Shown: positions 4,698-23,693, counted from the first letter of the stretch. The stretch is 23,987 bases of DNA from Verrucomicrobiota bacterium (GCA_021160185.1 JAGHDA010000115.1:1-23987), one strand, 5' to 3'. The notes: generated by a model not told the origin, from the letters alone. A program made the numbers and translations.

Positions 4698-5252
4698 TCA
4701 GAAATCCGCGTCCGGCGCTTCGCGCACGGCCGGTTTGACGCGAAAATAGTCTTCCGGTTTAAAGCCAAAGAGCCTGGCGACCAGATTGCTCGGGAAGGAT
4801 TCGCACTTGTTGCGGTAGTCCCGCACGTTGCCGTTGTAGAACCGGCGCGCGGCCTGAATCCGATCTTCAGTCCGGACCAACTCTCGTTGCAGCTCCAGGA
4901 AATGCTTGTCGGCTTTCAGCTCCGGATACCGCTCCACCACCGCGAGCAACTGGCGAAGCCCGTCCACCAACTGCTCTTCCTCGACGGCCTGGGAAGACAC
5001 CGGCCCGCGGTTCGCCGCACACCGGTTACGCAGCTCCACCACCCGCTCCAGCACTTCCCGCTCATGCCGGGCGTAGCCGCGCACTGTTTCCACCAGATTC
5101 GGGATCAGCTCGTACCGCCGCTTCAATTCGGTGTCCACGTCGGCCCACGCCTCGCGAATGTGATTGCGCAGCGCGACCAGGCCGTTGTACTGGGCAATCA
5201 CATAAATCGCGGCCAGGAGCAGAACCGCCGCCGGAAGAATGATCGGTTCCAT
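4698..5252 (-). CDS. lemA: LemA family protein
   Basis: N-terminal TM helix, then YNGLVALRNHIREAWADVDTELKRRYELIPNLVETVRGYARHEREVLERV, the canonical LemA core. GGGAGG precedes the ATG with a 7-nt spacer. Confidence 0.85.
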   Translation of the reverse strand: MEPIILPAAVLLLAAIYVIAQYNGLVALRNHIREAWADVDTELKRRYELIPNLVETVRGYARHEREVLERVVELRNRCAANRGPVSSQAVEEEQLVDGLRQLLAVVERYPELKADKHFLELQRELVRTEDRIQAARRFYNGNVRDYRNKCESFPSNLVARLFGFKPEDYFRVKPAVREAPDADF

Positions 5253-5264
5253 AGCTTCGCCTCC

Positions 5265-5981
5265 CTATTCGAACAGATACTCAGGCATCAACGCCCGCAC
5301 TTCCGCAAGGCGCTGGAGGTTGCCCTCCACCGTCCCAGGCTTTAATCGGCCGGAGAAAACAAACGCCAACGCGTTCCCTTCCACCTCGATGCTCAGGTCC
5401 GGATTGGCTAAAAGATATTCCATCATCCGGGCGTGGCAAAAGTCGTAGGCGAACCGCTTGTCCTTCGAGCGGACACAGAACTTGCGGGAAAACTCGTGCG
5501 ACTCGAAGTCGATGTCGTCGTAGCCGAAGGCCTGGGCGATCTTCGAAAGCAATCCCTCCCGGGCGACTGTCAGTTCCGGAAACCGTTTCGGGAGCCGCAT
5601 GAGATAACAGCAAAGATAGTGATGGTGAGTCCGCGAACGCCCCTTGGAGTCCGTCGAATAGGTTTCATAATGGTAGTCAAAGACCAGGACGGGCGATCCT
5701 CGGTATTCCCCCTCCATGATATTGAAGGCATAGCGGTTGGAGCCGCGCCGAAGCCGATCCAAAAAGGCGCATTCGCTTGCCAAGCCCCGATCGCGTTCCT
5801 GCCGGAAGCGGAAGCCCAGCCGTCCCGCCAACCGACGCAACGCCTCGCGGCGTTTCCGCTCGGCCAGAACGCCGAGAACCACCAAAACGACGACTAATAC
5901 AAGAAAGCCGACAACGAAAACCTCGCCTCCCATGCCATGGAACGTAGCGCGGCCCTCAAAGCGCAGGAAGCGCAAAGCCAA
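5265..5981 (-). CDS. Membrane-anchored hypothetical protein, DUF3137-like (LemA-associated)
   Basis: One N-terminal TM helix (FVVGFLVLVVVLVVLGVLA) followed by a soluble domain (YHYETYSTDSKGRSRTHHHYLCCYLMRL...). It sits 12 nt upstream of lemA on the same strand. The ORF-track start at 5981 is TTG. An internal ATG at 5933 immediately precedes the TM helix and is an equally plausible start. The DUF3137 assignment is from memory and not verified. Confidence 0.55.
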   Translation of the reverse strand: MALRFLRFEGRATFHGMGGEVFVVGFLVLVVVLVVLGVLAERKRREALRRLAGRLGFRFRQERDRGLASECAFLDRLRRGSNRYAFNIMEGEYRGSPVLVFDYHYETYSTDSKGRSRTHHHYLCCYLMRLPKRFPELTVAREGLLSKIAQAFGYDDIDFESHEFSRKFCVRSKDKRFAYDFCHARMMEYLLANPDLSIEVEGNALAFVFSGRLKPGTVEGNLQRLAEVRALMPEYLFE

Positions 5982-5993
5982 TGCGGGCTCGCG

Positions 5994-6368
5994 TCAATTC
6001 CGCCGCCGGAAGGCCGTCGGATCGGCAAAAGCCGCCAGAAGAAACAGAAGGCCCGGCAGAGAAAACACCGCGAACCATGGCCCGCCCGGCAAATGTCCTG
6101 CAACTGCAAGGTGAACCGCATAAAACCCGGCCAGGGAGAGCAGAGTAAACACGCCCCCGGACATCTCAATCCACCAGCCTAACACCATGCCCGCGGAGAC
6201 GCCCAAAGGGAAAAATGCGAACAGGATCTTCTCCCGCCACCCCGCGTCGAGCGCCCTGCCTCCCTCGCCCCACACGAACAGAAACAACCCCCCTACGGCA
6301 ACCGCGCTCAAGCCCCGAGCGCTCCACCGCAAAACCGCGTAAAGAACCTTGCCGCTTCCATCTCGCAC
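5994..6368 (-). CDS. Hypothetical small polytopic membrane protein (~124 aa, ~4 TM helices)
   Basis: GTG start. Hydrophobic segments are LSAVAVGGLFLFVW, ILFAFFPLGVSAGMVLGWWI, VFTLLSLAGFYAVHLAV and WFAVFSLPGLLFLLAAF. It is on the same strand and tightly spaced with the DUF3137-like gene. No recognisable family. Confidence 0.4.
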   Translation of the reverse strand: MRDGSGKVLYAVLRWSARGLSAVAVGGLFLFVWGEGGRALDAGWREKILFAFFPLGVSAGMVLGWWIEMSGGVFTLLSLAGFYAVHLAVAGHLPGGPWFAVFSLPGLLFLLAAFADPTAFRRRN

Positions 6369-10923: not shown

Positions 10924-12168
10924 ATGAATATCTCAGCTAGAAGCTTGAATTGCCTCCGGATCCTTGTCTGCGCGGGGCTGGCAGCAACGGGGGCGGCATG
11001 CCGGCAAGCCCGCGCCCGCGAAGGGTGGGCGCGGCATGTGATCGACCGATCCTCGCAAGGGGCGGACGGCGTGCGGCTGGGCGACCTGAACCGGGACGGC
11101 TTGCCCGACATTGCGACCGGATGGGAAGAAGGCGGCCGCGTGCGCGTCTGTCTCAACCCCGGACCGGCCAAAGCCCGAGAGCCATGGCCGGCGGTCACCG
11201 TGGGCAAGGTTCCCAACGTCGAGGACGCCCTGCTTGTGGATCTGGACGGAGACGGCCGGCAAGACGTGGCGAGCTGCGCCGAAGGCCGCACGCGGGCGAT
11301 GTTCGCGCACTGGGCGCCTCGGTCTCCGAAACGCCTTCTCGATCCGAAGGCCTGGCGCACGGAAGCGATTCCCGCCTCGCGCGGCAAGATGATGTGGATG
11401 TTCGCCGCGCCGATCCGGGCAGAGGGCAAACGCGGCGCGGACTTGATCGCAGGGGGAAAGGGCCCAGGCGCGGCGCTGGGTCGGTGGCGATTGCCCGAGC
11501 GGGCCCGGAATCCGGCTGCGTGGCATTGGCGCGCCCTGCGTCCGGTAGGATGGCTCATGTCCCTGGTCATTGAGGATATGAACGGCGACGGCCGCCAGGA
11601 CGTGTTGTTCTCCGACCGCAAAGGCCCCCGGCGGGGTTGTTTCTGGCTGGAACAACCCGGCGCCGACGCCCCGGAAGCCCCCTGGCGGGAACACCCGGTG
11701 GGCGGAGAGGGCCTTGAGGCCATGTTCCTTTCCACGGCGGATCTGGATCAGGACGGCCTGGAAGACGTGGTGGCAGCCGCAAAGCCGCGTCTGATCCTCT
11801 TTTGCCGCCGGTTGAACGTCTCGGGAGACAAATGGCGGGTCTTCCCGACCCGCATGCCCGAGGAAGCGGGCACAGCCAAGGCCGTGGCGGCGGGCGATAT
11901 GAACAACGACGGCCGTCTCGACCTCGTGTTCACCACGGAACAGGCCTCGCACGGACGCCAGGGCGTCATGTGGCTGAGCTATCGAGAGAGCCCCTTCCGG
12001 CCCGATTGGCAGCCGCACGCCGTCAGCGGCGTGGACGGCGTCAAACACGACCTGATCGAACTGATCGATCTGGACAACGACGGCGATCTGGATGTGCTCA
12101 CCTGCGAGGAAGCGCGCAACCTGGGCGTGTTCTGGTACGAGAACCCCCTGCTCGAGCCTCGGGACTGA
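10924..12168 (+). CDS. Secreted FG-GAP / VCBS-type beta-propeller repeat protein
   Basis: Signal peptide MNISARSLNCLRILVCAGLAATGAAC. At least 7 repeats of the D-x-[DN]-x-D-G-x-x-D calcium-binding-like motif (DLNRDGLPD, DLDGDGRQD, DMNGDGRQD, DLDQDGLED, DMNNDGRLD, DLDNDGDLD). An alternative ATG at 10897 has an adjacent AAGGA. The ORF-track start at 10282 is antisense-shadow extension. Confidence 0.75.
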   Translation: MNISARSLNCLRILVCAGLAATGAACRQARAREGWARHVIDRSSQGADGVRLGDLNRDGLPDIATGWEEGGRVRVCLNPGPAKAREPWPAVTVGKVPNVEDALLVDLDGDGRQDVASCAEGRTRAMFAHWAPRSPKRLLDPKAWRTEAIPASRGKMMWMFAAPIRAEGKRGADLIAGGKGPGAALGRWRLPERARNPAAWHWRALRPVGWLMSLVIEDMNGDGRQDVLFSDRKGPRRGCFWLEQPGADAPEAPWREHPVGGEGLEAMFLSTADLDQDGLEDVVAAAKPRLILFCRRLNVSGDKWRVFPTRMPEEAGTAKAVAAGDMNNDGRLDLVFTTEQASHGRQGVMWLSYRESPFRPDWQPHAVSGVDGVKHDLIELIDLDNDGDLDVLTCEEARNLGVFWYENPLLEPRD

Positions 12169-12245
12169 CCCGCCCAGGCGCGCAGAGAAGGCGCCGTAAG
12201 GAAGCAACCTTGCATTCCAGAGACGGGCTTCCCACACTCTGGGCG

Positions 12246-12263
12246 CTCCCCCGACGGGGGGAG
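12246..12263 (+). promoter_or_regulatory. Stable hairpin sequestering the Shine-Dalgarno of the prepilin peptidase gene
   Basis: CTCCCCC (12246-12252) / loop gacg / GGGGGAG (12257-12263) form a perfect 7-bp stem. The 3' arm contains the GGAGG SD, 18 nt upstream of ATG 12282. There is no U-tract after it, so it is not an intrinsic terminator. Confidence 0.4.
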
Positions 12264-12281
12264 GAACAAGACGCGGAACTC

Positions 12282-13448
12282 ATGGGAAGCGAAGCGGCAT
12301 GGGGGCGGATGCCCTTTCACTTTTGGTCCGTCACAGCCTTTGTTGTGGGGTGCGTGACGGGTAGTTTTCTGAACGTTTGCATCCATCGGCTTCCCCGCGG
12401 GGAAAGCATTGTCTCCCCGCCTTCCCATTGCCCTCATTGCGGCCGCCGGATCCCCTGGCATCTAAACCTGCCGCTGATCAGTTGGTTGGCGCTTCGGGGG
12501 CATTGCGCCTGGTGTCGCGCGCCGATCTCGCCGCGGTATTTTGTCGTGGAGCTGATCACAGGGCTGGCGTTCCTCGGCGTCTGGCTGCGCTTCGGGGCGG
12601 CTGACCCGGCCGCGGCGGCGGTGTGGGCCGTGTTCCTTGCCGGATTGATCGCCGCGACCTTCATCGACGTGGAGCACTTTATCATTCCGGACCGGATCAC
12701 CCTCGGCGGAGCGGCGGCGGGGTTCTTGTTTTCCTTTTTTGTGCCGGCTGTTCAGGGAACTTCCTCGTCGGTCGAGGCGATGACGCGCTCCCTTGTCGGG
12801 GCGGCCGCCGGCGCGGGCAGTCTTTACCTCGTCCTGCGAGGGGGCAAACTGTTGTTCGGCCGCAAGCGCCTTCGGTTTGAAGCGCCTCTCTGGATTCTCT
12901 TCGGCCGCCGAGGACTCCATCTGCCTGAGGAAAGCGCGGCCTACGAAGATCTGCTCTATCGGGGAAACGATCGAATCCGAGCCCCGGAGGCTCAAGTCGA
13001 ACTGGAAGACCGGTGTTTGCTCCGCGCCGAAGTGCGCGCGGGGTTGAAAGGAAAGGAAGTCCGGGAACTGCCTTCCTTCCCACAGGGCGGATCGGAAGCC
13101 TCCTCCGCAAGCGCCGGCCGAGAGGAAGCGTTGTTCGCGTTGCGACTGCGCCTGGAAGAAGGGCCGTTGATCTGGGCCCGGTGCAAGGAGCTGATTCTTC
13201 CCCGCGAAGTGATGGGCCTCGGGGACGTCAAGTTTCTGGCCGCCATCGGGGCCTTCACAGGTTGGCAAGGAGCGCTCTTCGCCATCATGGCCAGCGCGCT
13301 GATCGGCTCGGCCGCCGGGCTTGCAGCTGTGGCGCTAGGCAGGCGCCAATGGTCGGCGCAAATTCCCTACGGTCCCTACCTGGCCGCCGCAGCGGCGCTT
13401 TGGATTTTCGCCGGGCCGCAGATCGCGGCCCGCTGGCTCGGGATGTAA
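12282..13448 (+). CDS. pilD: Prepilin (type IV leader) peptidase, A24 family, with a ~110-aa insertion in the cytoplasmic loop before the second catalytic Asp
   Basis: FLNVCIHRLP; Zn tetracysteine CPHCGRR...CAWCRAPISPRY; first catalytic Asp in IDVEHFIIPD; second in GLGDVKFLAAIGAFTGW. The two Asps are 186 residues apart, versus ~64 typically. ATG 12282 or ATG 12309 (MPFHF...) are both plausible starts. The ORF-track start at 11802 is shadow. Confidence 0.8.
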   Translation: MGSEAAWGRMPFHFWSVTAFVVGCVTGSFLNVCIHRLPRGESIVSPPSHCPHCGRRIPWHLNLPLISWLALRGHCAWCRAPISPRYFVVELITGLAFLGVWLRFGAADPAAAAVWAVFLAGLIAATFIDVEHFIIPDRITLGGAAAGFLFSFFVPAVQGTSSSVEAMTRSLVGAAAGAGSLYLVLRGGKLLFGRKRLRFEAPLWILFGRRGLHLPEESAAYEDLLYRGNDRIRAPEAQVELEDRCLLRAEVRAGLKGKEVRELPSFPQGGSEASSASAGREEALFALRLRLEEGPLIWARCKELILPREVMGLGDVKFLAAIGAFTGWQGALFAIMASALIGSAAGLAAVALGRRQWSAQIPYGPYLAAAAALWIFAGPQIAARWLGM

Positions 13449-13450
13449 GC

Positions 13451-15514
13451 TCAGGCCGCGCCCGCGGCGGGCGCGATCCTGGCGCCCGGCGCAGGCCCTC
13501 CGGCGGCGCCGCTGTCAGCCTCGGGTCGGAACGGCTCCAGCTCCTCGCCTTGGCGCACCAACCTCGCGCTGTTGAACACGACGATCAGAGAGCCCACATT
13601 GTGGAGAATCGCCGCGAGGATCGGATTGATGTATCCGAAGGCGGAGAAAGTCAGGCCGCTGATGATAAACAGCACCCCAAAGGCGAAGTTTTGATTGATT
13701 ACGCTGCGCGTGGACCGGGAAAGACGGACAAGGAAGGGGATGCGCCGCAGGTCGTTGTTCATGAGGGCGATCGTGGCGCTGTGGATCGCCACCTCGCTGC
13801 CGGCCGCTCCCATCGCCACGCCCATGTCGCCCGCGGCCAAGGCCGGGGCGTCGTTGACGCCGTCGCCGACAAACGCCACGCGGTACCCCTTGGCGCGCAG
13901 AGAGGCCACAAAGTCGACCTTGTCCTGGGGGAGACACTCGGCCAGAACCTCCTCGCAGCCCATTTCCCGGGCAACCCGCAGGGCCACCGGTTTGCGGTCG
14001 CCGGTCACCATGGCCACCCGGCGCACTCCCGCCTCTTTCAGGCCGGCCAAAGCTTCCTTGGCTTCCTTCCGCACTTCATCCCGCAGGCCGATCCAGCCCA
14101 GATAGCGGCCGTCCACAGCCACGTAGATCAAGCTGTAGCCTTCGGTCTCCTTCAGGTCGATCGCTTTGCTCAAGTCTTCCTGAACCCCGTTTTGTTTCAG
14201 CCACGCGGCGCGGCCCACGACCACCTTCTTTCCATCCACCACGGCGCGAACGCCGCGGCCGGCGGTTTCGGAAAATTCCCGCGGCTCCGCCAGAGGCACC
14301 CCGGCTTCGCCGGCGAGCTCGGCCAAGGCTTTCGCTGTGGGGTGGTTGCTGTACTGCTCGGCGGAAGCGGCCAGGCGGAGCAGCTCGGCGGCCTTGATCC
14401 CCGCCGCCGGGGCTAGCCGGCTCACCGCGAGGACGCCGGTGGTGAGCGTGCCGGTCTTGTCAAACACAAAGGCGTTGATGCGAGCGGCCAACTCGATGTC
14501 GGCCACGTTCTTGATCAACACGCCAAGCCGGGCGGCGGCGGAAAGCGCGGCCACCATGGCGGTGGGCGAGGCCAGAATGAAGGCGCACGGACAGGACACG
14601 ATCAGGACGGCGATCGTGCGGTCCAGGCTCCGGGTGAAGGCCCACACCAAGGCGCCCATCAAGAGCACCAGCGGAGTGTAGTAAACCATGTACTGGTCGA
14701 CGATACGGAGGAATGGAAGCTTGGTCTTCTGAGCGGCCAGAATCAACTCGCGCACGCGTCCCAAGGTGGTGTCCTCGCCGGCGCGGGTCACCCGCACCTC
14801 GAGCGCGCCGGTCAGGTTCTGCGTCCCGGCGAAGACCTGGTCGCCGGTCCCCTTGTCCACAGGAAGCGATTCGCCGGTGATGTTGGCCTCGTTAATCGAA
14901 GCCTCGCCGGAAACGATCACGCCGTCAGCGGGAACGCTGTCGCCCGGACGCACGCGGATGACGTCGCCCACGCGCAATTCCTGGGCGGGGATCTCCTCCT
15001 CGGAGCCGTCGGGCCGAATCCGCCGGGCTCGGGTGGGAGTCAACTTGATCAGGGACTCGATCGAGGCGCGCGCGCCTTCGGCGGTGCGCGTCTCGATAAG
15101 CTCGCCCAGGAGGAGGAAGAAGGCGACGACGCCGGCGGTCTGATAGTTGCCGCTGCCGAAGCAGGCGAGCACGGCGATCGTGACCAGCTCATTGATGCTG
15201 AGGATGTTCCGTTGAAGGTCGCGGATCGAGTTGAGCACGATCGGGATTCCCAGGATAAGCGCGCCGATCATAGCGCTGGCGCTGGCGACCGCCGCGCCGG
15301 TTTCGGGGAACACCCAATGGAGGACATAGGAATTGATGACAAAGATGAGCCCTACGAACATCTGCGGCAGTCGCACCGAGATGTGTTCGTGCTCATGCTC
15401 ATGGCCTCCTTCGCCCGCTCCGGGAACGGCGCAACAACTGCAAGCGACCCCGCCGCCGGCTTCCTCGCGCAGCGCGCGCGCCTCGCTTCGGCTCAAAATT
15501 CTGTTCTCACGCAT
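13451..15514 (-). CDS. Heavy-metal translocating P1B-type ATPase (CPC type; probable Zn/Cd/Co-like)
   Basis: TGES (ITGESLPV), DKTGTLT, GDGVNDAPAL, and SCPCAFILASPTA in TM6. The N-terminus has CSCC and HEHEHEH metal-binding motifs instead of a classical GMTCxxC HMA domain. The TM8 region is HNVGSLIVVFNSARL. Confidence 0.9.
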   Translation of the reverse strand: MRENRILSRSEARALREEAGGGVACSCCAVPGAGEGGHEHEHEHISVRLPQMFVGLIFVINSYVLHWVFPETGAAVASASAMIGALILGIPIVLNSIRDLQRNILSINELVTIAVLACFGSGNYQTAGVVAFFLLLGELIETRTAEGARASIESLIKLTPTRARRIRPDGSEEEIPAQELRVGDVIRVRPGDSVPADGVIVSGEASINEANITGESLPVDKGTGDQVFAGTQNLTGALEVRVTRAGEDTTLGRVRELILAAQKTKLPFLRIVDQYMVYYTPLVLLMGALVWAFTRSLDRTIAVLIVSCPCAFILASPTAMVAALSAAARLGVLIKNVADIELAARINAFVFDKTGTLTTGVLAVSRLAPAAGIKAAELLRLAASAEQYSNHPTAKALAELAGEAGVPLAEPREFSETAGRGVRAVVDGKKVVVGRAAWLKQNGVQEDLSKAIDLKETEGYSLIYVAVDGRYLGWIGLRDEVRKEAKEALAGLKEAGVRRVAMVTGDRKPVALRVAREMGCEEVLAECLPQDKVDFVASLRAKGYRVAFVGDGVNDAPALAAGDMGVAMGAAGSEVAIHSATIALMNNDLRRIPFLVRLSRSTRSVINQNFAFGVLFIISGLTFSAFGYINPILAAILHNVGSLIVVFNSARLVRQGEELEPFRPEADSGAAGGPAPGARIAPAAGAA

Positions 15515-15535
15515 GGCTCGTTCTCACGGTGTCGA

Positions 15536-16693
15536 TCAAGGCTGCCGCCGGCCCGAAGCCGACTTGGGCTTCATCGGCGTTCGGTTCAACAACAGGCGAA
15601 TTTCCCGCGTCACCCCGGGCGGCAGCTCGGGAAGGAAAAACTTGTCCTGGGCGTTGGTGGCCACCTGGCCCAGGGCGGCGATCAGGAGCCGATTTCGAAA
15701 AAGCCAGGGATCCTTCTCGTATTCGGGCAGCATCTTCTCGAATGATTCGGCCAGCGCGGCCACCGCCTGAACGAGCCGGTTGCTGCGGGTCAAGCCTTCG
15801 TTGAGAATGGCCTGGGCCTCGCCCTGGGCGCGACGAAGGATTTCCTGTTGATAGCCCCGCGCGTCGCTGATCGCCCGGCTCCGCTCCTGCTCCGCGGAGA
15901 TGACGTTTTCAAAGGCCTGCCGCACGTCCGCCGGCGGCTTGGTTTCCACATCGCTCGGTTCGAGCGTCACTCCCAGGCTCAGCTCATCCACGAGCTCGTT
16001 GACCCGAGCCAGCACCAAATCGCGGTAGCCGCTCTTGTTTTTGTAGAGCGCGTCGTCGGCGGTCATCCTGGCGGCGGCGTAGAAGATCGCCTCGTTGACG
16101 ATGTTGGTAAGGATGGTTTCCGGCTTGGCGAAGCCGAAGAAATATCGGAGCGGATCAGTAACGCGATACTTCACCCGAGCGCGGGCGTGGATGATGTTTC
16201 CGTCGGCGGTGATGACATAGCCGTCGGCTTCCGGGCTCAAATAGCCGCGAGGGGGCGGCTCGCCGCCGGAGGCCTCCATTTCCGGCGTCACGGCGTGCCA
16301 TCCGGCGGTGGAGGCGACGGTCTTAGTCTCTCCGACTCGGATGCGGACTTTCTCGTCGATGGGCGGCGGATAGGCCCAATGCCAGCCGGGGCCTTTGAGC
16401 ATTTCAGGGCCCTTGCCCACCGGCTTGCCGAAGCGAAGCAGCACGACCACCTCGTTGGGGCCCACAATGAAGGAGCCGGAGAAGAAGAAGACCGCCAACA
16501 GCGCCACCATGAGGAAGCGGATGATCTTGAAGCTGCTGCTCAGCGCTTCAGAAAGGGCCTGGGAGCTGGCGTCTTCGGGCGTCACAGGCGGCGTCTCCGG
16601 CGCGGCTCGCCTCTCTTGCCGGGGAGCGCCGCTTTCCTCTTTATCGGGCTGGAGATTTTGGGAGGCCATGGCGTGAGGCGATAGACGGTTCAA
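15536..16693 (-). CDS. hflK: SPFH/band-7 protein, HflK-like protease modulator
   Basis: Cytoplasmic N-tail, TM FLMVALLAVFFFSGSF, then IVGPNEVVVLLRFGKP and an HflK-like C-terminal coiled region (RQAFENVISAEQERSRAISDARGYQQEILRRAQGEA...LPEYEKDP). The TTG at 16693 overlaps the HflC stop (TTGA). An internal ATG at 16669 is an alternative start. Confidence 0.8.
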   Translation of the reverse strand: MNRLSPHAMASQNLQPDKEESGAPRQERRAAPETPPVTPEDASSQALSEALSSSFKIIRFLMVALLAVFFFSGSFIVGPNEVVVLLRFGKPVGKGPEMLKGPGWHWAYPPPIDEKVRIRVGETKTVASTAGWHAVTPEMEASGGEPPPRGYLSPEADGYVITADGNIIHARARVKYRVTDPLRYFFGFAKPETILTNIVNEAIFYAAARMTADDALYKNKSGYRDLVLARVNELVDELSLGVTLEPSDVETKPPADVRQAFENVISAEQERSRAISDARGYQQEILRRAQGEAQAILNEGLTRSNRLVQAVAALAESFEKMLPEYEKDPWLFRNRLLIAALGQVATNAQDKFFLPELPPGVTREIRLLLNRTPMKPKSASGRRQP

Positions 16694-17649
16694 TTCTTCC
16701 CGGCTTGCTTGGCTTCGCCCGGCTTGGCAGGGGCGGGAGGGGGCGATTGCGTGTCGGCGTTTTTGGGAAACGCGTCGCCGCGAAGCAAGTCAAACGGCGG
16801 GGTGCGCGGATCCAGCACCAGGGTCGAGCGCTCCTTGAGAGCCTGCTGGAGGGCCTTCAGCTTGAGGAGGAAGACGGCCAGATCCGGATTCTTCTCGAAC
16901 GTCTTAAGCTCCTTCGCCGCTTGGGCCTCGGCCTGGCCTTCAATAACGGTGGCCTGGGACTCGGCCTGGGCCAGGATCTTGGCTTTCTGCGTGTCGGCGT
17001 TGGAGCGGATCTTCTGCGCTTCGGCTTCCCCTTCGCCCCGGTACTTGCGCACCAACTCCTCCCGCTCGGCCTTCATGCGCTCGAAGACCTTGGCGGTGAT
17101 CGACTCGGGCAGGCCGATCTGCTTGATGCCCAGCAGGGCCACTTCAATGCCGTAGGTGTTCGTCGCGCGCGACTGCATGGCGGCCAGCATTTCCTGCTCC
17201 ACCTGGTCGAACTTCAACGCTTTCGGGTCGGGCGAGATGAAGTCGGCGAGCGGGTGACGGCCCACCACGCTGTTTTTGGCGTCGCGCAGCAAGCCTTCCA
17301 GGCTCTGCTCGGCGCGGGTGATGTCGCCGTTGAATCGCTCCAGGAACAGCTTGGGATCGCGGATCTTCCATCCCACAAACGCCTCGATGAGGATGATCCG
17401 CCCGTCCTGCGTGGTGGTCTGTTCGTACTTCTTCTCAAAATTGTGGATGCGGTTGTCGAACCGATACACGTTCTGGATCGGCCAAGGCCAGCGAAATTTC
17501 AGGCCGGGCTTCTCGATCGTGCGGGTGTATCGGCCGAAAGTGGTTACTACGGCCACCTCGGTCTGCCGCACTTGGAAGGCGACCAGCATCGTCACGAAGA
17601 TCAGGCCGATCAGAACCGCCGTCAGGATGGTCAATGGATTCCGTTTCAT
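16690..17649 (-). CDS. hflC: SPFH/band-7 protein, HflC-like protease modulator
   Basis: An immediate N-terminal TM, then VVTTFGRYTRTIEKPGLKFRWPWPIQNVYRFDNR...VFERMKAEREELVRKYRGEGEAEAQKIRSNADTQKA...NPDLAVFLLKLKALQQAL. These closely parallel E. coli HflC motifs. Confidence 0.85.
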   Translation of the reverse strand: MKRNPLTILTAVLIGLIFVTMLVAFQVRQTEVAVVTTFGRYTRTIEKPGLKFRWPWPIQNVYRFDNRIHNFEKKYEQTTTQDGRIILIEAFVGWKIRDPKLFLERFNGDITRAEQSLEGLLRDAKNSVVGRHPLADFISPDPKALKFDQVEQEMLAAMQSRATNTYGIEVALLGIKQIGLPESITAKVFERMKAEREELVRKYRGEGEAEAQKIRSNADTQKAKILAQAESQATVIEGQAEAQAAKELKTFEKNPDLAVFLLKLKALQQALKERSTLVLDPRTPPFDLLRGDAFPKNADTQSPPPAPAKPGEAKQAGKN

Positions 17650-17679
17650 CGCCGTCTGGTTTGTTCCCTGGAAAAAATT

Positions 17680-19572
17680 CTATGGTTGGCCCTGGGTCTC
17701 GTTCCCGGGCAAGGTCACGTCCAACAGATCGGGCCGGATTTCATCCTCAAGATTAAACTGCACCACCTGGTTCGCGTTGGTCGGCACGACCACGTAGATC
17801 CGCGCGTTGGTGATCGAGCCGCTCACGGTGTCCAGATACATGTAGAGCGGATACACGCTCGGCGAAGCCTGGTAGGCCGCTTCTTGGTTGAGGAAGCGCT
17901 CCGCGGTGGCCTTGGCCAAGGAAACAAGGCGCGTGCGATAAGCGGTCGCCCGGTTCACCACCTGAACCCCTTCGGCATCGGCTTTGGGCACCGTCTCGGC
18001 GGCGTACGCGCGGGCGTAATGATTGGTTGCAGCCGCGTCCTGGATGGCGCCGATGACCTTCTCGAACTCAGGGGCCACTCTCACCGGCGGATGGATCCCA
18101 TGCAGTCCCACGAAGAGGATTTTCACGCCCAGCTCAAGCCGGTCCGCCTCGGCCTGGATCCGGCGCAGCAGCTCCTCGGCCGCTTTCCGGCGGCCTGGCC
18201 CCATCACGTCGTACAGATCCACGCTCACGAGGTACTTGGTCAGTTCCCTGCCCGCCACCTCCTTCAGCAGTTCCCCTGCGTCGCGGTGATTGTACACATA
18301 CGCCTTGAGGTCGCGGATCTAGTAATGCACCGGCACAGCCACGCTGAGCAGGTTCACCGGCACGGTTTGTTCCTCGTTCCCCGCCGCGTCCAACTGCTGC
18401 CGGCTGGCCACAAGCATGTTGAACTCCTGCTTGGCGTGCGGCCGGGTCCACAACAACACCCTGCTCTGCGCCTCCTGGGCTTTCTCTTCCTCGGTTTCCT
18501 CCGCACGACCGAGAGTGAACACCTGGACCAGGTCGGTTCGATAGCGGTACACATGGTCGATGGGCCAGGGCCATTTCACATGCAGCCCAGGCTCCAGAAC
18601 ATTCCGATCCCCCGCAGGCCGACCGAAGCGCTCCAGCAACGCCCCCTCGCCCGGCGGGATCACCACAAAACAAGTGGAAAGCTCCAACACCGTCAGTTGG
18701 AGGAGAATGAACCACCCGATAGTCTTCTCGAGAAAGCGGTAGAACCAGGTCTCCGAAACCTTGAACCCGAACTGATAGTCCAACGCCTGGGCCACGGTGC
18801 GGATGATTCCGCCCGGCTGGCTCAACATCCCGATCAAGCGGCTTTCGTAAAGGGGCCGCTCCTCCGCGCCCCGCACCCGCGGTCGGTACGCTTCCAGCAA
18901 CAGGCGCACCAGGTTCTCCGCCCCCACCAAAGCCAAGACCGCCAACAAGCCCCGGGCGACGATCGGATCCAGCTCCGGCCGCCCCGACCATCCGGCCGCC
19001 TCCACCGCCGCGGTAAGCAGCGTCAGCAACGCCCCTAGCAGCAGATAGGCGGCTTGGGGCCGCAAAAGCCACTGGTTCTCCAGCCGGGCGAACACGGCCG
19101 AGTATTTGCCGAACTGGAAGAACAGCAGGGCGAAGAGTCCGTTGAGCGCCATGGCCACGGTGGCCTGGCGCAGATTCGAGGGCTGATCTTTGCCCACGTA
19201 GTCCCAAAGGAAATAGACGGCCAGACCCTGGATGATCAGCAACAGGACGGCCGTAAAAGGCACAAAGTATTTCTCGAACTGGAGGCGCGCTTGCCGGGCG
19301 GGAAACAGGTCGCCCGCCTCCTCCTCGAAAAGCGACTCGCTCGCCGCCCGCCTGCGCAGCTCCTCATGCTCCAGCCGCTCCAGCTCCTCCCGCTCGTAAA
19401 GGCGCATCTGGAAGTAGCTGACGGCCGCCGTCAGAACCCCCATTCCCAAAAACACGCTGGAGACCAGCCCCGTGGCCGAATGGCTGTAGCGGGCGATCGC
19501 CGCCGCCGCCGCCCCCAAGACCAACAGCGTCAGGCAGTTGATCAGCCCCTTTCGCAAGATATTCTGCTCCAT
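17680..19572 (-). pseudogene. HflK-like SPFH protein fused to an N-terminal ~270-aa polytopic membrane domain, interrupted by a single in-frame TAG (18319-18321)
   Basis: ORFs 18319..19572 and 17680..18297 are in the same frame, separated only by TAG plus 7 sense codons. Upstream half: 4-5 TM helices, then IPPGEGALLERFGRPAGDRNVLEPGLHVKWPWPIDHV...VAVPVHY*. Downstream half: IRDLKAYVYNHRDAGELL...GVKILFVGLHGIHPPVRVAPEFEKVIGAIQ... The stop falls where HflK has the Y-R-I of VQYRITDP. Both halves keep coding-like codon bias. Confidence 0.7.
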
Positions 19573-19578
19573 GCCGTC

Positions 19579-20538
19579 CTAAGAAAGCTCGCGATCCTCG
19601 AACAAAAACAAGCCCGCGCACAGCGCCGCGCCCAGATAGCCGAGCGCGTAGCCGGCCGTGTGCGCCACGTAGCTCCAGGGGATCTTTTTCCCCATCGAGA
19701 GCGTGTCGCCCATCCAGAAAAGCTGCCAATTGGGCAGCGCCCCGTACGCGACGTTGGCCCACCACTCCCCCGCTTCGGCGCGCCGGCCGAAAAGATAGTC
19801 CGACATCAGCCCCAACACGAACACCACCGTGCATAACGCCAGCGTCGGCGCCAGCTCCAGCCGAGTCGAACACGCCAATGCGATCGCCGCCAACACGCAA
19901 AGCGCCAGGACAATCAGCACGCCCGCCGGAACCAGCCGCCAGTCCACCTGCGCCACCTTCCCGAAGGAACGATGCAGGGTCGCCAGGAACGCAATGTAAC
20001 AAAACGCCGCCGTCACCGTCAGGACCATCGCGAACACCGCGTCCGCCACAAACACCCGATTCAAAAAATAGTTCGTGAACGCCCCCGCCAGATACGCCGC
20101 CGCCACGGCGATCGCGTAGGCCGTCAGGGACTGAAAATCGGTGCTGTCGTAAGCGTCGTAGGCCATCCGACTGGCCAGCAGCACAGCAAGCATGTTCACG
20201 TAGGTCAAGACGCTCAACGCGCCCACCAGCCCGAAATACTTGCCCAGGAGGAACTTCATGCGGCTTACCGGCTTGGCCAGCACCGCCAGCGCCGTGCCCG
20301 ACCGCACCTCCTCGCCCACCGAAGCCGAAGCGCTGATCACCGTGCCGAAGAGCCCCGCCAGAAGCGTGAGCGCCAACGTCATGGTCTTGACCATGTTCGG
20401 ATCATCGCCGAAGCCGAAGTAGGGAATGGCGGCCAGAAAGACGTTTAGCGTGGCCGAGGCGGTCATCAGCAGCAGGAAAACCGGCTGCCGAATCAGCTCC
20501 ATGAAACTGTTAGCGGCGATGGTCCAAACTTGCCTCAT
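19579..20538 (-). CDS. ABC-2 family transporter permease (6 TM), with no cognate ATPase in the operon
   Basis: The ABC-2 signature SASVGEEVRSGTALAVLAKPVSRMKFLLGKY (consensus ...GTLExLLSxPVSRxxxLLGK) and six hydrophobic segments. It is the first gene on the minus strand after a divergent intergenic region, 6 nt upstream of the SPFH fusion gene. Confidence 0.7.
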   Translation of the reverse strand: MRQVWTIAANSFMELIRQPVFLLLMTASATLNVFLAAIPYFGFGDDPNMVKTMTLALTLLAGLFGTVISASASVGEEVRSGTALAVLAKPVSRMKFLLGKYFGLVGALSVLTYVNMLAVLLASRMAYDAYDSTDFQSLTAYAIAVAAAYLAGAFTNYFLNRVFVADAVFAMVLTVTAAFCYIAFLATLHRSFGKVAQVDWRLVPAGVLIVLALCVLAAIALACSTRLELAPTLALCTVVFVLGLMSDYLFGRRAEAGEWWANVAYGALPNWQLFWMGDTLSMGKKIPWSYVAHTAGYALGYLGAALCAGLFLFEDRELS

Positions 20539-20656
20539 CCTCTCTCATCCAATCCGCTCCAAGCCGCGCATGGTGGCTTATCGCCCTCTCGTTTGCAAAC
20601 GCTTATCCCTCCTCGCCCTCCCCGGCTCGATCCAACTCCAATCTCTCCGCGCTGAA

Positions 20657-20680
20657 CAGTGTGCTTTTTCCGGCACACTG
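20657..20680. promoter_or_regulatory. Perfect 8-bp inverted repeat CAGTGTGC-N8-GCACACTG (candidate operator)
   Basis: Read directly: cagtgtgc tttttccg gcacactg. It ends 14 nt upstream of the radical SAM ATG (20695) and lies in the divergent region ~120 nt upstream of the ABC-2 permease start. There are no flanking U-tracts, so it is not a terminator. Confidence 0.5.
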
Positions 20681-20694
20681 CTTATGATGACAAC

Positions 20695-21759
20695 ATGACC
20701 CTGGAGGAGGGTTCATACGAAAAACCGATCCGACGCGCCGCGGCCCCGGAGCCGTATCCCGCAAAACGGGCCGCGCGCGGCCGATGGATTCGCCGCCTCC
20801 GTCCGCCCGTCGCGCCGTGCGACCCATGGACCCCCCAAGCCGTCTTTTGCGAAACCGAGCCCGACCCGGATGACCGCCGGCCTCGCCGGACGCTGACGGT
20901 CCTGCTGACCGGCCGCCGGTGTCCCTGGACCTGCGTCATGTGCGACCTGTGGCGGCGCGCCGCGCCCGGGCCGATCCCGCCCGGCGCGGTTCCCCGCCAG
21001 CTCGCCGCCGCTCTCCGAACCGGCGCGCCCAACGGCCTCCCGGCGCAGGCGCTCAAGCTTTACAACGCCGGGAGCTTTTTCGACGCGGCCGCCGTGCCGC
21101 CCCGGGACTGGCCCGCCGTGGCGGCCCATGCCGTCGGCTTCGAGCGGGTGATCGTCGAATCCCATCCCAAACTGGTCGATCCGGGCGCGGCGCGCTTCCT
21201 CGAAGCCCTTCGCGCGGCGGCCCGAGCGCGCGGCCGGCCGGCCCCCGCGCTCGAGGTCGCCCTCGGCCTGGAAACCGCCCATCCCGCGGTCCTCGAAAAA
21301 CTCAACAAAGGCGCGACGCTCGAGGATTTCCGCCGGGCCTGCGCTTTCCTGCGCGGGTTGGGGGCGGAAGCCCGCGCCTTCGTGCTGCTCAACCCGCCGT
21401 TCCTCCCACCCGAAGAGCATTTGCCCTGGGCGGTGCGCTCGGCGGCGTTCGCCTTCGACTGCGGGGCGGCGGTTGCGGCGATCCTTCCCGTTCGCCCTGG
21501 AAATGGCGCGATCGAAGCCCTTCAGGAGCGCGGACTGTTCCACCCCGCCCCGATCCGCCTTCTGGAAGAAGCCCTCGCGGCGTGCTTTCGGCTGGGCCGA
21601 GGCATCGTCCTGGCCGACACATGGGACCTGGACCGGTTGGAATGCTGCCGCCGCTGCCTGCCTCTCCGGGCGGAAAACCTCGAACGGATGAACCTTTCCC
21701 AAACGCCCAGCGCCCCCGTCGTTTGTCCGGACTGCGATCCGGCCGGAGGGCAGCCATGA
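20695..21759 (+). CDS. Radical SAM domain protein (CX3CX2C), subfamily unresolved, with a C-terminal Cys cluster
   Basis: LLTGRRCPWTCVMCDLW carries the radical SAM cysteine triad. ~355 aa. The C-terminus has ECCRRC...x27...CPDC. The ORF-track GTG start at 20659 lies inside the inverted repeat, so I prefer ATG 20695 (MTLEEG...). Confidence 0.7.
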   Translation: MTLEEGSYEKPIRRAAAPEPYPAKRAARGRWIRRLRPPVAPCDPWTPQAVFCETEPDPDDRRPRRTLTVLLTGRRCPWTCVMCDLWRRAAPGPIPPGAVPRQLAAALRTGAPNGLPAQALKLYNAGSFFDAAAVPPRDWPAVAAHAVGFERVIVESHPKLVDPGAARFLEALRAAARARGRPAPALEVALGLETAHPAVLEKLNKGATLEDFRRACAFLRGLGAEARAFVLLNPPFLPPEEHLPWAVRSAAFAFDCGAAVAAILPVRPGNGAIEALQERGLFHPAPIRLLEEALAACFRLGRGIVLADTWDLDRLECCRRCLPLRAENLERMNLSQTPSAPVVCPDCDPAGGQP

Positions 21760-23345: not shown

Positions 23346-23693
23346 CTAGCCCTTCGCGTCCTCTGCCGGCGGCCGTTCCGACCCGGCGGCGCGCCGCCCC
23401 TCGGCCACGATCTGCTCCAAGGCGGCCAGGTATTTCTCGAACGCCGCCCGGCCCTTAGGCGTCAGGGAACACGTGGTCCAGGGCCGGCGATTCCGGGAGC
23501 TCCGGCTCACCGCCACGTAGCCGGCCCTCCGCAGGGTTTGCAGGTGCACGCTGAGATTGCCGTCCGTCATCCCCAGCGTGTCGCGCAGCTCTACAAACGA
23601 GAGTTCCGGCGAGGCGGCCAGCAGGGAGACGATCGAGAGCCGCCCCTTCTCATGGATCACGCGATCCAATTGCTGGAACAAGTCCGGATTCAC
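23346..23693 (-). CDS. Winged-helix transcriptional regulator (HTH_34 / PadR-ArsR-like small regulator)
   Basis: VNPDLFQQLDRVIHEKGRLSIVSLLAASPELSFVELRDTLGMTDGNLSVHLQTLRRAGYVAV...SLTPKGRAAFEKYLAALEQIV. The GTG start at 23693 overlaps the upstream stop (GTGA). The longer ORF-track version (23984 start) has an R/G-rich nonsense N-terminus and is rejected. Confidence 0.6.
   Translation of the reverse strand: MNPDLFQQLDRVIHEKGRLSIVSLLAASPELSFVELRDTLGMTDGNLSVHLQTLRRAGYVAVSRSSRNRRPWTTCSLTPKGRAAFEKYLAALEQIVAEGRRAAGSERPPAEDAKG

Follow-up and report, generated by a model that had tools for sequence, protein, structure and literature searches.

Gene content and operon structure of the locus

The window analysed here is the whole 23,987-nt stretch JAGHDA010000115.1:1-23987 of a Verrucomicrobiota bacterium (GCA_021160185.1; G+C 64%). 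Five adjoining genes on its minus strand encode an ABC-2-type permease, three SPFH proteins and a P1B-type metal ATPase. We consider it reasonably likely that this locus is the verrucomicrobial form of a widespread, horizontally moved four-gene cassette, in which a dedicated SPFH assembly works with a transition-metal pump. The cluster has already been noticed in Pseudomonas aeruginosa and never explained; its ABC-2-extended verrucomicrobial form is new. The features are as follows (TM, transmembrane segment; CDF, cation diffusion facilitator).

20539-20658, minus strand: upstream intergenic region, divergent from a radical-SAM gene; contains a partial promoter-like motif, GGATAAGCGTTTGCAAAC, at 20594-20611
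19579-20538, minus strand: first gene, ABC-2-type (NosY-like) permease, 319 aa, with about 6-7 hydrophobic segments
18886-19572, minus strand: residues 1-229 of the first HflK-type protein (long HflK), a six-TM domain with a predicted CDF/SLC30 membrane fold
18322-18885, minus strand: residues 230-417 of the long HflK, comprising a cytoplasmic linker (RPR...YESRL...DYQFG), TM7 and the start of the SPFH domain, placed by alignments, conservation, hydropathy and Band_7 profile positions 2-49
18319-18321, minus strand: in-frame TAG (Q418*) splitting the long HflK gene; CAG (Gln) in relatives
17680-18318, minus strand: residues 419-630 of the long HflK, comprising the rest of the SPFH domain, a coiled-coil helix and the C-terminal tail
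16690-17649, minus strand: HflC-type SPFH protein, 319 aa, with one N-terminal TM (TIGR01932 and E. coli HflC matches)
15536-16693, minus strand: second HflK-type SPFH protein, 385 aa (377 aa from the ATG at 16669), with one TM (TIGR01933 and E. coli HflK matches)
13451-15514, minus strand: P1B-type ATPase, 687 aa, without an HMA domain; His-rich N-terminus, CPC, LHNVGS in the last helix (TIGR01525)

The permease, HflC, second HflK and ATPase genes are intact open reading frames (ORFs), correctly placed in the initial annotation, as were the spacings of 6, 30, -4 and 21 nt along the five genes (the -4 becomes +20 if the second HflK starts at its ATG). The family calls made there for these four products also hold, although the window permease itself matches ABC-2 families only below threshold. 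No Rfam element or riboswitch was found in the window.

One genome per species was scanned with two motifs from the N-terminal domain (N-domain) of the long HflK. Relatives were found in 490 genomes, and the best 80 loci, almost all labelled Verrucomicrobiota, were compared. The order permease-long HflK-HflC-HflK-P1B is kept on one strand in 80/80 genomes as far as each contig extends, which goes well beyond chance. The proteins encoded there are 41-77% identical to those of the window, the ATPase being the most conserved, and median gaps between the genes are 7, 25, 7 and 34 nt. Flanking genes vary among loci, and only SurA-like and PdxA genes recur upstream. A promoter-like motif, TTGCA[AT]-N15-19 (mostly N17)-TAnnnT, lies upstream of the permease in 47/73 loci (background 0.012 per 250 nt), ending ~20 nt before the permease ATG in 38 of the 47, and is essentially missing before the internal genes (0-4 loci); the window itself holds only the partial copy at 20594-20611, with an ambiguous -10 element. 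Internal sigma-70 promoters and terminators, which were looked for separately, show no excess over shuffled sequence. As judged from the synteny in 80/80 genomes, the motif upstream of the first gene only and the short gaps, the five genes are one conserved operon. An operon had been proposed from the window itself, with lack of synteny named beforehand as the refuting outcome; the conserved order bears the proposal out.

Two further features of these loci were observed. Distant loci (L004-L087) share GAATAAC(C/G)GT immediately 5′ of the -35-like TTGCA and GATTCG ahead of the -10-like TAACCT, which may mark a regulator site rather than only a promoter. Two complete Limisphaerales genomes carry additional sequence between their SPFH genes: in one (L081) the inserts (11918-13645 and 15343-16846) hold three ORFs on the same strand (575, 327 and 166 aa), none of which matches Pfam, and in the other (L078) the insert lies between HflC and HflK.

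Three SPFH paralogues of HflK/HflC type

PF01145 was found in all three SPFH proteins by Pfam scan. The HflC-like protein scores 143.5 bits on TIGR01932 (cut-off 134.4), thereby passing the NCBIfam HflC equivalog, and its best PDB match is E. coli HflC (8e-34). On TIGR01933 the HflK-like protein reaches 138 bits and the long HflK fragment 83.6 bits, both below the cut-off of 159.4; the best PDB match of the HflK-like protein is E. coli HflK (3e-23, or 1.4e-29 with the family profile). Hydropathy gives one TM each for the HflC-like and HflK-like proteins and 6+1 segments for the long HflK. The second HflK is 385 aa long from a TTG start, and its relatives are called from the ATG (16669 in the window), which yields 377 aa. 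Thousands of database relatives, mostly annotated 'protease modulator HflK', correspond to the intact long HflK (620-630 aa). By sequence and predicted fold, the SPFH parts are thus of HflK/HflC type. Their gene order, initially described as an inverted hflC-hflK, is actually long HflK-HflC-HflK (K-C-K), so the first pair is a canonical hflK-hflC with an extra hflK paralogue behind it.

The same matches bear on an account centred on FtsH quality control, in which the triad would recruit FtsH, whose gene lies elsewhere, to the pump or protect the pump against it, with the CDF-like domain as an adaptor; pump abundance would then track metal status. It draws on the HflC equivalog score and the near-cut-off score of the HflK-like protein, on the closest solved structures, which are FtsH-bound HflK/HflC complexes, and on FtsH itself being a zinc protease (PMC11761036, PMC9431628). 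Against it, neither ftsH nor hflX is present in the window (in agreement with the initial annotation) or in any fetched locus. We give this account a minor chance of being right; FtsH-mediated pump control overlaps with the dedicated SPFH assembly favoured here and is a compatible variant of it.

A nonsense codon in the window copy of the long HflK gene

The long HflK gene (17680-19572) is not a single ORF. A TAG at 18319-18321 falls within a conserved SPFH strand (VHY*IRDL), and the 3′ part of the gene is an ORF only from a GTG at 18297. At the Q418 site, CAG (Gln) stands in L001-L003, three contigs of other samples that share 99.4-99.6% identity with the window, and Gln occupies this position in every homologue examined; the nonsense codon (CAG>TAG) was found in the window only, among the four near-identical contigs, whose neighbouring genes differ almost entirely by synonymous changes. 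The long HflK is therefore truncated in the window's strain, unless the TAG base is a variant or an error. The 'polytopic-HflK fusion' first assigned here stands for the relatives, where the long HflK does carry a multi-TM N-domain, and it overlooked the TAG that splits the window copy. Recoding or read-through of TAG was rejected, since TAG is an ordinary stop in the window, ending both the long HflK gene itself and the permease gene.

A predicted CDF fold fused to the long HflK

By hydropathy, the long HflK consists of 2+4 TM segments, a ~60-residue loop and one further TM, followed by the SPFH domain. This 2+4+1 pattern is common to verrucomicrobial, Kosakonia and two metagenomic long HflKs, that is, to most of those compared, across three sequence-divergent groups. 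In predicted models, the N-domain matches the six-TM membrane fold of CDF transporters. At the sequence level no CDF match was obtained using the family profile at E <= 10, nothing solved resembles the N-domain by sequence, and Pfam Cation_efflux gives no match to the long HflK. The TM2/TM5 H/DxxxD metal site and the cytoplasmic C-terminal domain of CDFs are likewise absent from the long HflK.

Conservation of the N-domain in Verrucomicrobiota peaks on the predicted cytoplasmic face, at the TM2 extension, the pre-TM3 helix and the linker (230-275). The conserved polar membrane residues are N12, Q115, D202 and E219 only; the TM6 Glu (E219) and parts of the linker are conserved in all phyla compared. 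On the predicted models, the N-domain is probably a CDF-fold domain of transporter origin, and is unlikely to act as a canonical Zn/H antiporter. It had been described as novel, a label at odds with a 2+4+1 architecture common to most long HflKs compared and with a predicted CDF-transporter fold. A TspO/MBR Pfam match of the N-domain was dismissed as weak, sub-threshold and not seen structurally.

Motifs of the P1B ATPase

The ATPase scores 573 bits on TIGR01525 and 485 bits on TIGR01512 ('cadmium family'), with matches to PF00122 and PF00702. Its PDB relatives are CopA, CoaT and ZntA, and it scores far below the cut-offs of the CopA and ZntA equivalog models. FDKTGTLT is present; in the metal-site helix Cys-Pro is invariant, with the second Cys found in 63/65 orthologues, and the last helix reads LH(N/V)xGS, conserved across the 65 orthologues. 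The N-terminus begins with a conserved MQVTSLLSR, then a His/Asp-rich stretch and often CxxCGHDHEH, and no HMA domain was reported by Pfam scan. TM5 has neither YN nor Lys, and no subgroup signature was found, whether YN/MxxSS of P1B-1 Cu(I) pumps, Lys/DxG of the ZntA type or SPC/HEGxT of the CoaT type.

CPC with LHN(x)(G/S)(S/T), often with a His-rich N-terminus, also characterizes the proteobacterial cassette ATPases described below. When cluster representatives were ranked by similarity, the top ~50 were nearly all of the CPC/HN type (where the motif was readable), and HEGST, DxG and MxxS types appeared only lower in the ranking. This motif pattern points to the CPC/LHN ATPases being a distinct P1B subgroup for divalent transition metals.

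The four-gene cassette in other phyla

Plasmids and chromids were searched with the long HflK. The core cassette, consisting of long HflK (568-672 aa), HflC, a third SPFH protein and a P-type ATPase, was found in Rhizobium tumorigenes, Paraburkholderia sprentiae, a Klebsiella aerogenes plasmid and Burkholderia sp. FXe9, as well as in a Kosakonia genomic island with integrase and transposase fragments; its range covers Alpha-, Beta- and Gammaproteobacteria plus metagenomic lineages. Window proteins match their positional counterparts best, with identities of 23-26% (long HflK), 26-31% (HflC), 24-30% (HflK) and 36-38% (ATPase), the best proteobacterial counterpart of the second HflK-type protein being the module's third SPFH gene. 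The cassette ATPase family is common in Enterobacterales, and the Klebsiella-plasmid ATPase used as a query returned Enterobacterales only. The four divergent 50%-cluster ATPase representatives tested (40-55% identity to the query) all sit in this four-gene unit (4/4), and a further cluster representative belongs to Calycomorphotria (Planctomycetota). The initial suggestion of a specific link between three SPFH paralogues and a P1B ATPase thus gains support from its recurrence across phyla.

This recurrence bears directly on a housekeeping explanation, under which the SPFH genes are general FtsH modulators that neighbour a metal pump by chance, in keeping with the label 'protease modulator HflK/HflC' that annotation pipelines give them. 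The linkage to one ATPase subtype persists across phyla, changing flanks and mobile elements, and there are always three paralogues, one with a 6-TM domain. P. aeruginosa and Enterobacterales also have canonical hflKC elsewhere, which counts against this explanation too. Because of the synteny it is close to refuted, and we regard it as highly improbable.

Small ORFs downstream of the proteobacterial ATPases showed no match to DUF4946 or other families. In Burkholderia sp. FXe9 (L088 11308-13250) the ATPase is frameshifted into ORFs of 473 aa and 197 aa and is missing from the plasmid's protein table.

The ABC-2 permease and its relatives

The window permease gives weak Pfam matches to ABC2_membrane_4/2/3, below the gathering score (23.6 vs 27). 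Among its orthologues, 18/21 match PF12730 (E <= 0.01; best 9e-8) and 14/21 match PF12679, and homologues are named 'ABC-2 type transport system permease' or 'multi-copper enzyme maturation permease subunit' (a JGI label). The top 120 permease matches are all close verrucomicrobial orthologues. The gene is present in every verrucomicrobial locus whose contig extends upstream, and is absent upstream of the proteobacterial modules and all the other non-verrucomicrobial cassette copies described above.

In the clade more distant from the window (long HflK 46-54% identical; loci L006 and L031-L086), the P1B gene is followed by three same-strand genes in 43/43 loci with enough downstream sequence (e.g., L006 16097-20296 for all three):

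downstream gene 1: ABC ATPase of ~400 aa (PF00005) with a ~150-aa C-terminal extension
downstream gene 2: ABC-2-like permease of ~460 aa with weak ABC-2 matches and a ~190-aa inserted loop
downstream gene 3: protein of ~500 aa, N-terminal TM, without a match in Pfam

Most relatives carry these three additional genes. The ~460-aa protein is paralogous to the first-gene permease (hhalign 81% probability, E 1e-5, over the C-terminal half), and the two share a ...RELS/RELA end. All three genes are missing at the locus in the window's clade (~17 loci with at least 3.7 kb of room), and tblastn found no trace of them in the window. From these sequences, the most fitting reading of the permease is as one subunit of an ABC-2 transporter, the remaining parts of which the window's clade has lost or relocated. 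This departs from the initial annotation, in which it was an orphan, non-transporting protein: a partner ABC ATPase is encoded with the permease neither in the window nor in its clade's loci, and 43/43 distant relatives end the operon with an ABC ATPase and the paralogous ABC-2-like permease.

The module might then be primarily an ABC-2 transporter (NosFY-like, for a periplasmic metal cofactor or envelope component), with the SPFH proteins and the pump as accessories. The NosY-like permease comes first in every verrucomicrobial locus where the contig extends upstream, the 43 distant loci close with the ABC ATPase, second permease and third protein, and next to the cassette in metagenomic locus L094 are genes for an ABC ATPase, an ABC-2-like protein and a TPR protein. 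However, the SPFH-P1B core occurs without any ABC genes in Proteobacteria, and the window's clade keeps the core without the ATPase and second permease at the locus; we rate a primarily ABC-2 role as improbable.

A proposed link to zinc through the P. aeruginosa hmtA locus

Genes related to zinc uptake adjoin some proteobacterial copies of the cassette: znuABC-like genes and a GTP-binding protein in L091, and ZnuA with an ABC ATPase in L096. In Kosakonia (L092), the long HflK gene is preceded by two Zur-box-like palindromes, GTTACAATATAAC and TGTTATTTCATAGCA, at distances of ~183 and 97 nt.

In P. aeruginosa PAO1, PA2435 (HmtA) occurs with PA2437 ('HflC family'), PA2438 (HflC) and PA2439 ('HflK family') (PMC4542158). 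A znuA mutant shows higher expression of PA2435 and PA2437-2439 (PMC4542158), zinc depletion raises the levels of the encoded proteins (PMC11761036), and the PA2439 promoter is bound by Zur (PMC4542158, PMC11761036, PMC8531726). The window shows the hmtA-type arrangement, with three SPFH genes and then a P1B gene in one direction, and by published annotation and gene order its cassette matches PA2439-PA2435. The arrangement, which the initial annotation took to be undescribed, has, on this match, been reported as Zur-bound and zinc-starvation-induced, with its mechanism uncharacterized (PMC4542158, PMC8531726, PMC11761036). None of the cited hmtA-locus papers addresses why three SPFH genes accompany the pump, and nothing further was found in the literature on SPFH proteins with P-type ATPases or with CDFs.

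HmtA was reported as a Zn/Cu importer from overexpression phenotypes, for which a review states that confirmation is needed (PMC10393844). Metal efflux, the role first proposed for the window ATPase, is not established: among relatives by annotation only HmtA has been studied, with import as its reported direction, and its locus responds to zinc limitation.

Proposed function and its weighing

E. coli HflK and HflC form an alternating cage (PDB 7VHP, 7WI3). By analogy, the three SPFH paralogues of the cassette may together build a ring or cage like that of HflK/HflC, located at the periplasmic side of the inner membrane. Such an assembly would organise, stabilise or gate the co-encoded pump or control its turnover, and the CDF-like domains would sit in the enclosed membrane patch, presenting their conserved cytoplasmic surface. 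The pump substrate would be a divalent transition metal, most likely zinc and possibly copper, and in Proteobacteria the system would serve zinc-limited cells. Of the interpretation first offered for the window, the idea of SPFH proteins dedicated to a metal pump is retained; the novelty of the arrangement and the orphan permease are not, nor, probably, is 'efflux'.

Several points weigh against this proposal. The correspondence with PA2439-PA2435 is one of published annotation and gene order, position-by-position orthology being shown for the Rhizobium, Burkholderia, Paraburkholderia, Klebsiella-plasmid and Kosakonia cassettes only. In one study, hmtA mRNA was not zinc-repressed (PMC8531726). 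The verrucomicrobial loci showed neither zinc-related neighbours nor a Zur-like box. At 36-38% identity, the window ATPase is about as distant from the proteobacterial module ATPases as from CopA, so its subtype assignment rests on motifs and shared gene context. The CDF-like domain lacks the canonical metal site, and its fold comes from predicted models only. Finally, given the nonsense codon, the system may be defective in the window's strain.

A bolder form of the proposal, to which we assign a low probability, is that the SPFH proteins form a closed periplasmic cage over the pump and the CDF-fold domains, creating a private compartment for pumping zinc or copper in or out. If true, a closed metal compartment would give zinc-starved cells a means of loading exported metalloproteins or of capturing scarce metal, and would account for the 'importer' phenotype of HmtA, which is puzzling. 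In this reading the SPFH scaffold would have taken in an element derived from a transporter, the fused CDF-like domain.

Recent structures are available for SPFH cages (HflK/C, prohibitin, stomatin, flotillin, erlin), whose contents and purpose are largely open. The cassette provides a compact genetic case: across phyla, three HflK/HflC paralogues, one of them fused to a transporter-like domain, are firmly tied to one client, a P-type metal pump. In P. aeruginosa the hmtA locus belongs to the zinc-starvation response; the direction of HmtA is disputed, and no attention has gone to its three SPFH neighbours. In the verrucomicrobial form an ABC-2 transporter joins the cassette operon, and viewing the locus as a conserved four-gene unit with a predicted CDF-fold component makes it testable in a tractable organism.

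Other genes in the window

Upstream of the operon, a divergent gene (20659-21759, plus strand) encodes a radical-SAM protein that most resembles the archaeosine-biosynthesis RaSEA family, an unusual relative in a bacterium; at 72 bits the score falls well short of the cut-off. A winged-helix regulator (HTH_34, ArsR/MarR-like; 23346-23693, minus strand) lies ~3 kb upstream of the operon and is not a conserved neighbour elsewhere. Convergent with the ATPase gene is a prepilin peptidase (A24; 12300-13448, plus strand) with its N-terminal and catalytic Pfam regions ~200 residues apart, which suggests a large insert. At 4698-6368 (minus strand), small membrane-associated genes (LemA, DUF3137-like, DUF7670) stand in a row.

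Comparison with known systems

The E. coli HflK/HflC-FtsH complex (PDB 7VHP, 7WI3, 9CZ2) shares with the window HflK/HflC-type SPFH domains, a long coiled-coil helix and the K-then-C order, and its single-TM anchor is matched by two of the window's three SPFH proteins. Unlike E. coli, the window has three paralogues rather than two, one with a six-TM CDF-fold domain by prediction. Its genes are linked to a P-type ATPase instead of hflX/ftsH, and its HflK-like protein and long HflK fall below the NCBIfam cut-off. QmcA-YbbJ and stomatin-NfeD resemble the window in that SPFH genes are co-transcribed with a dedicated membrane partner; in the window, however, the partner is a primary active transporter plus a fused transporter-like domain, not NfeD.

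Compared with CDFs (YiiP/FieF, CzcD, ZnT/SLC30), the predicted bundle of the window protein continues into the linker, TM7 and an SPFH domain that replaces the C-terminal domain. Like P1B-2 (ZntA/CadA) and P1B-4 (CoaT/CzcP) pumps, the window ATPase has the eight-helix P1B core and DKTGT, with CPC as in P1B-2 and a His at the position of the P1B-4 HEGxT motif; it differs from both in having LHN(x)G/S and no HMA domain, without the TM5 Lys and TM6 DxG of the one or the SPC and HEGxT of the other. With NosDFY ABC-2 systems the locus shares a permease in PF12679/PF12730 with a NosY-type label and, in relatives, an ABC ATPase partner, whereas the window operon has no NosD, NosL or NosZ, embeds the permease among SPFH and P-type ATPase genes, and has relatives that carry two different permease paralogues.

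The closest parallel is the PA2439-PA2434 locus of P. aeruginosa, which by published annotation combines, like the window, an HflK-family gene, HflC, a further HflC/HflK-family gene and a P1B ATPase without classic specificity (PMC4542158, PMC8531726, PMC11761036, PMC9431628). Unlike in the window, a further gene, PA2436, separates hmtA from the SPFH genes, and reports on the locus mention no ABC-2 permease.

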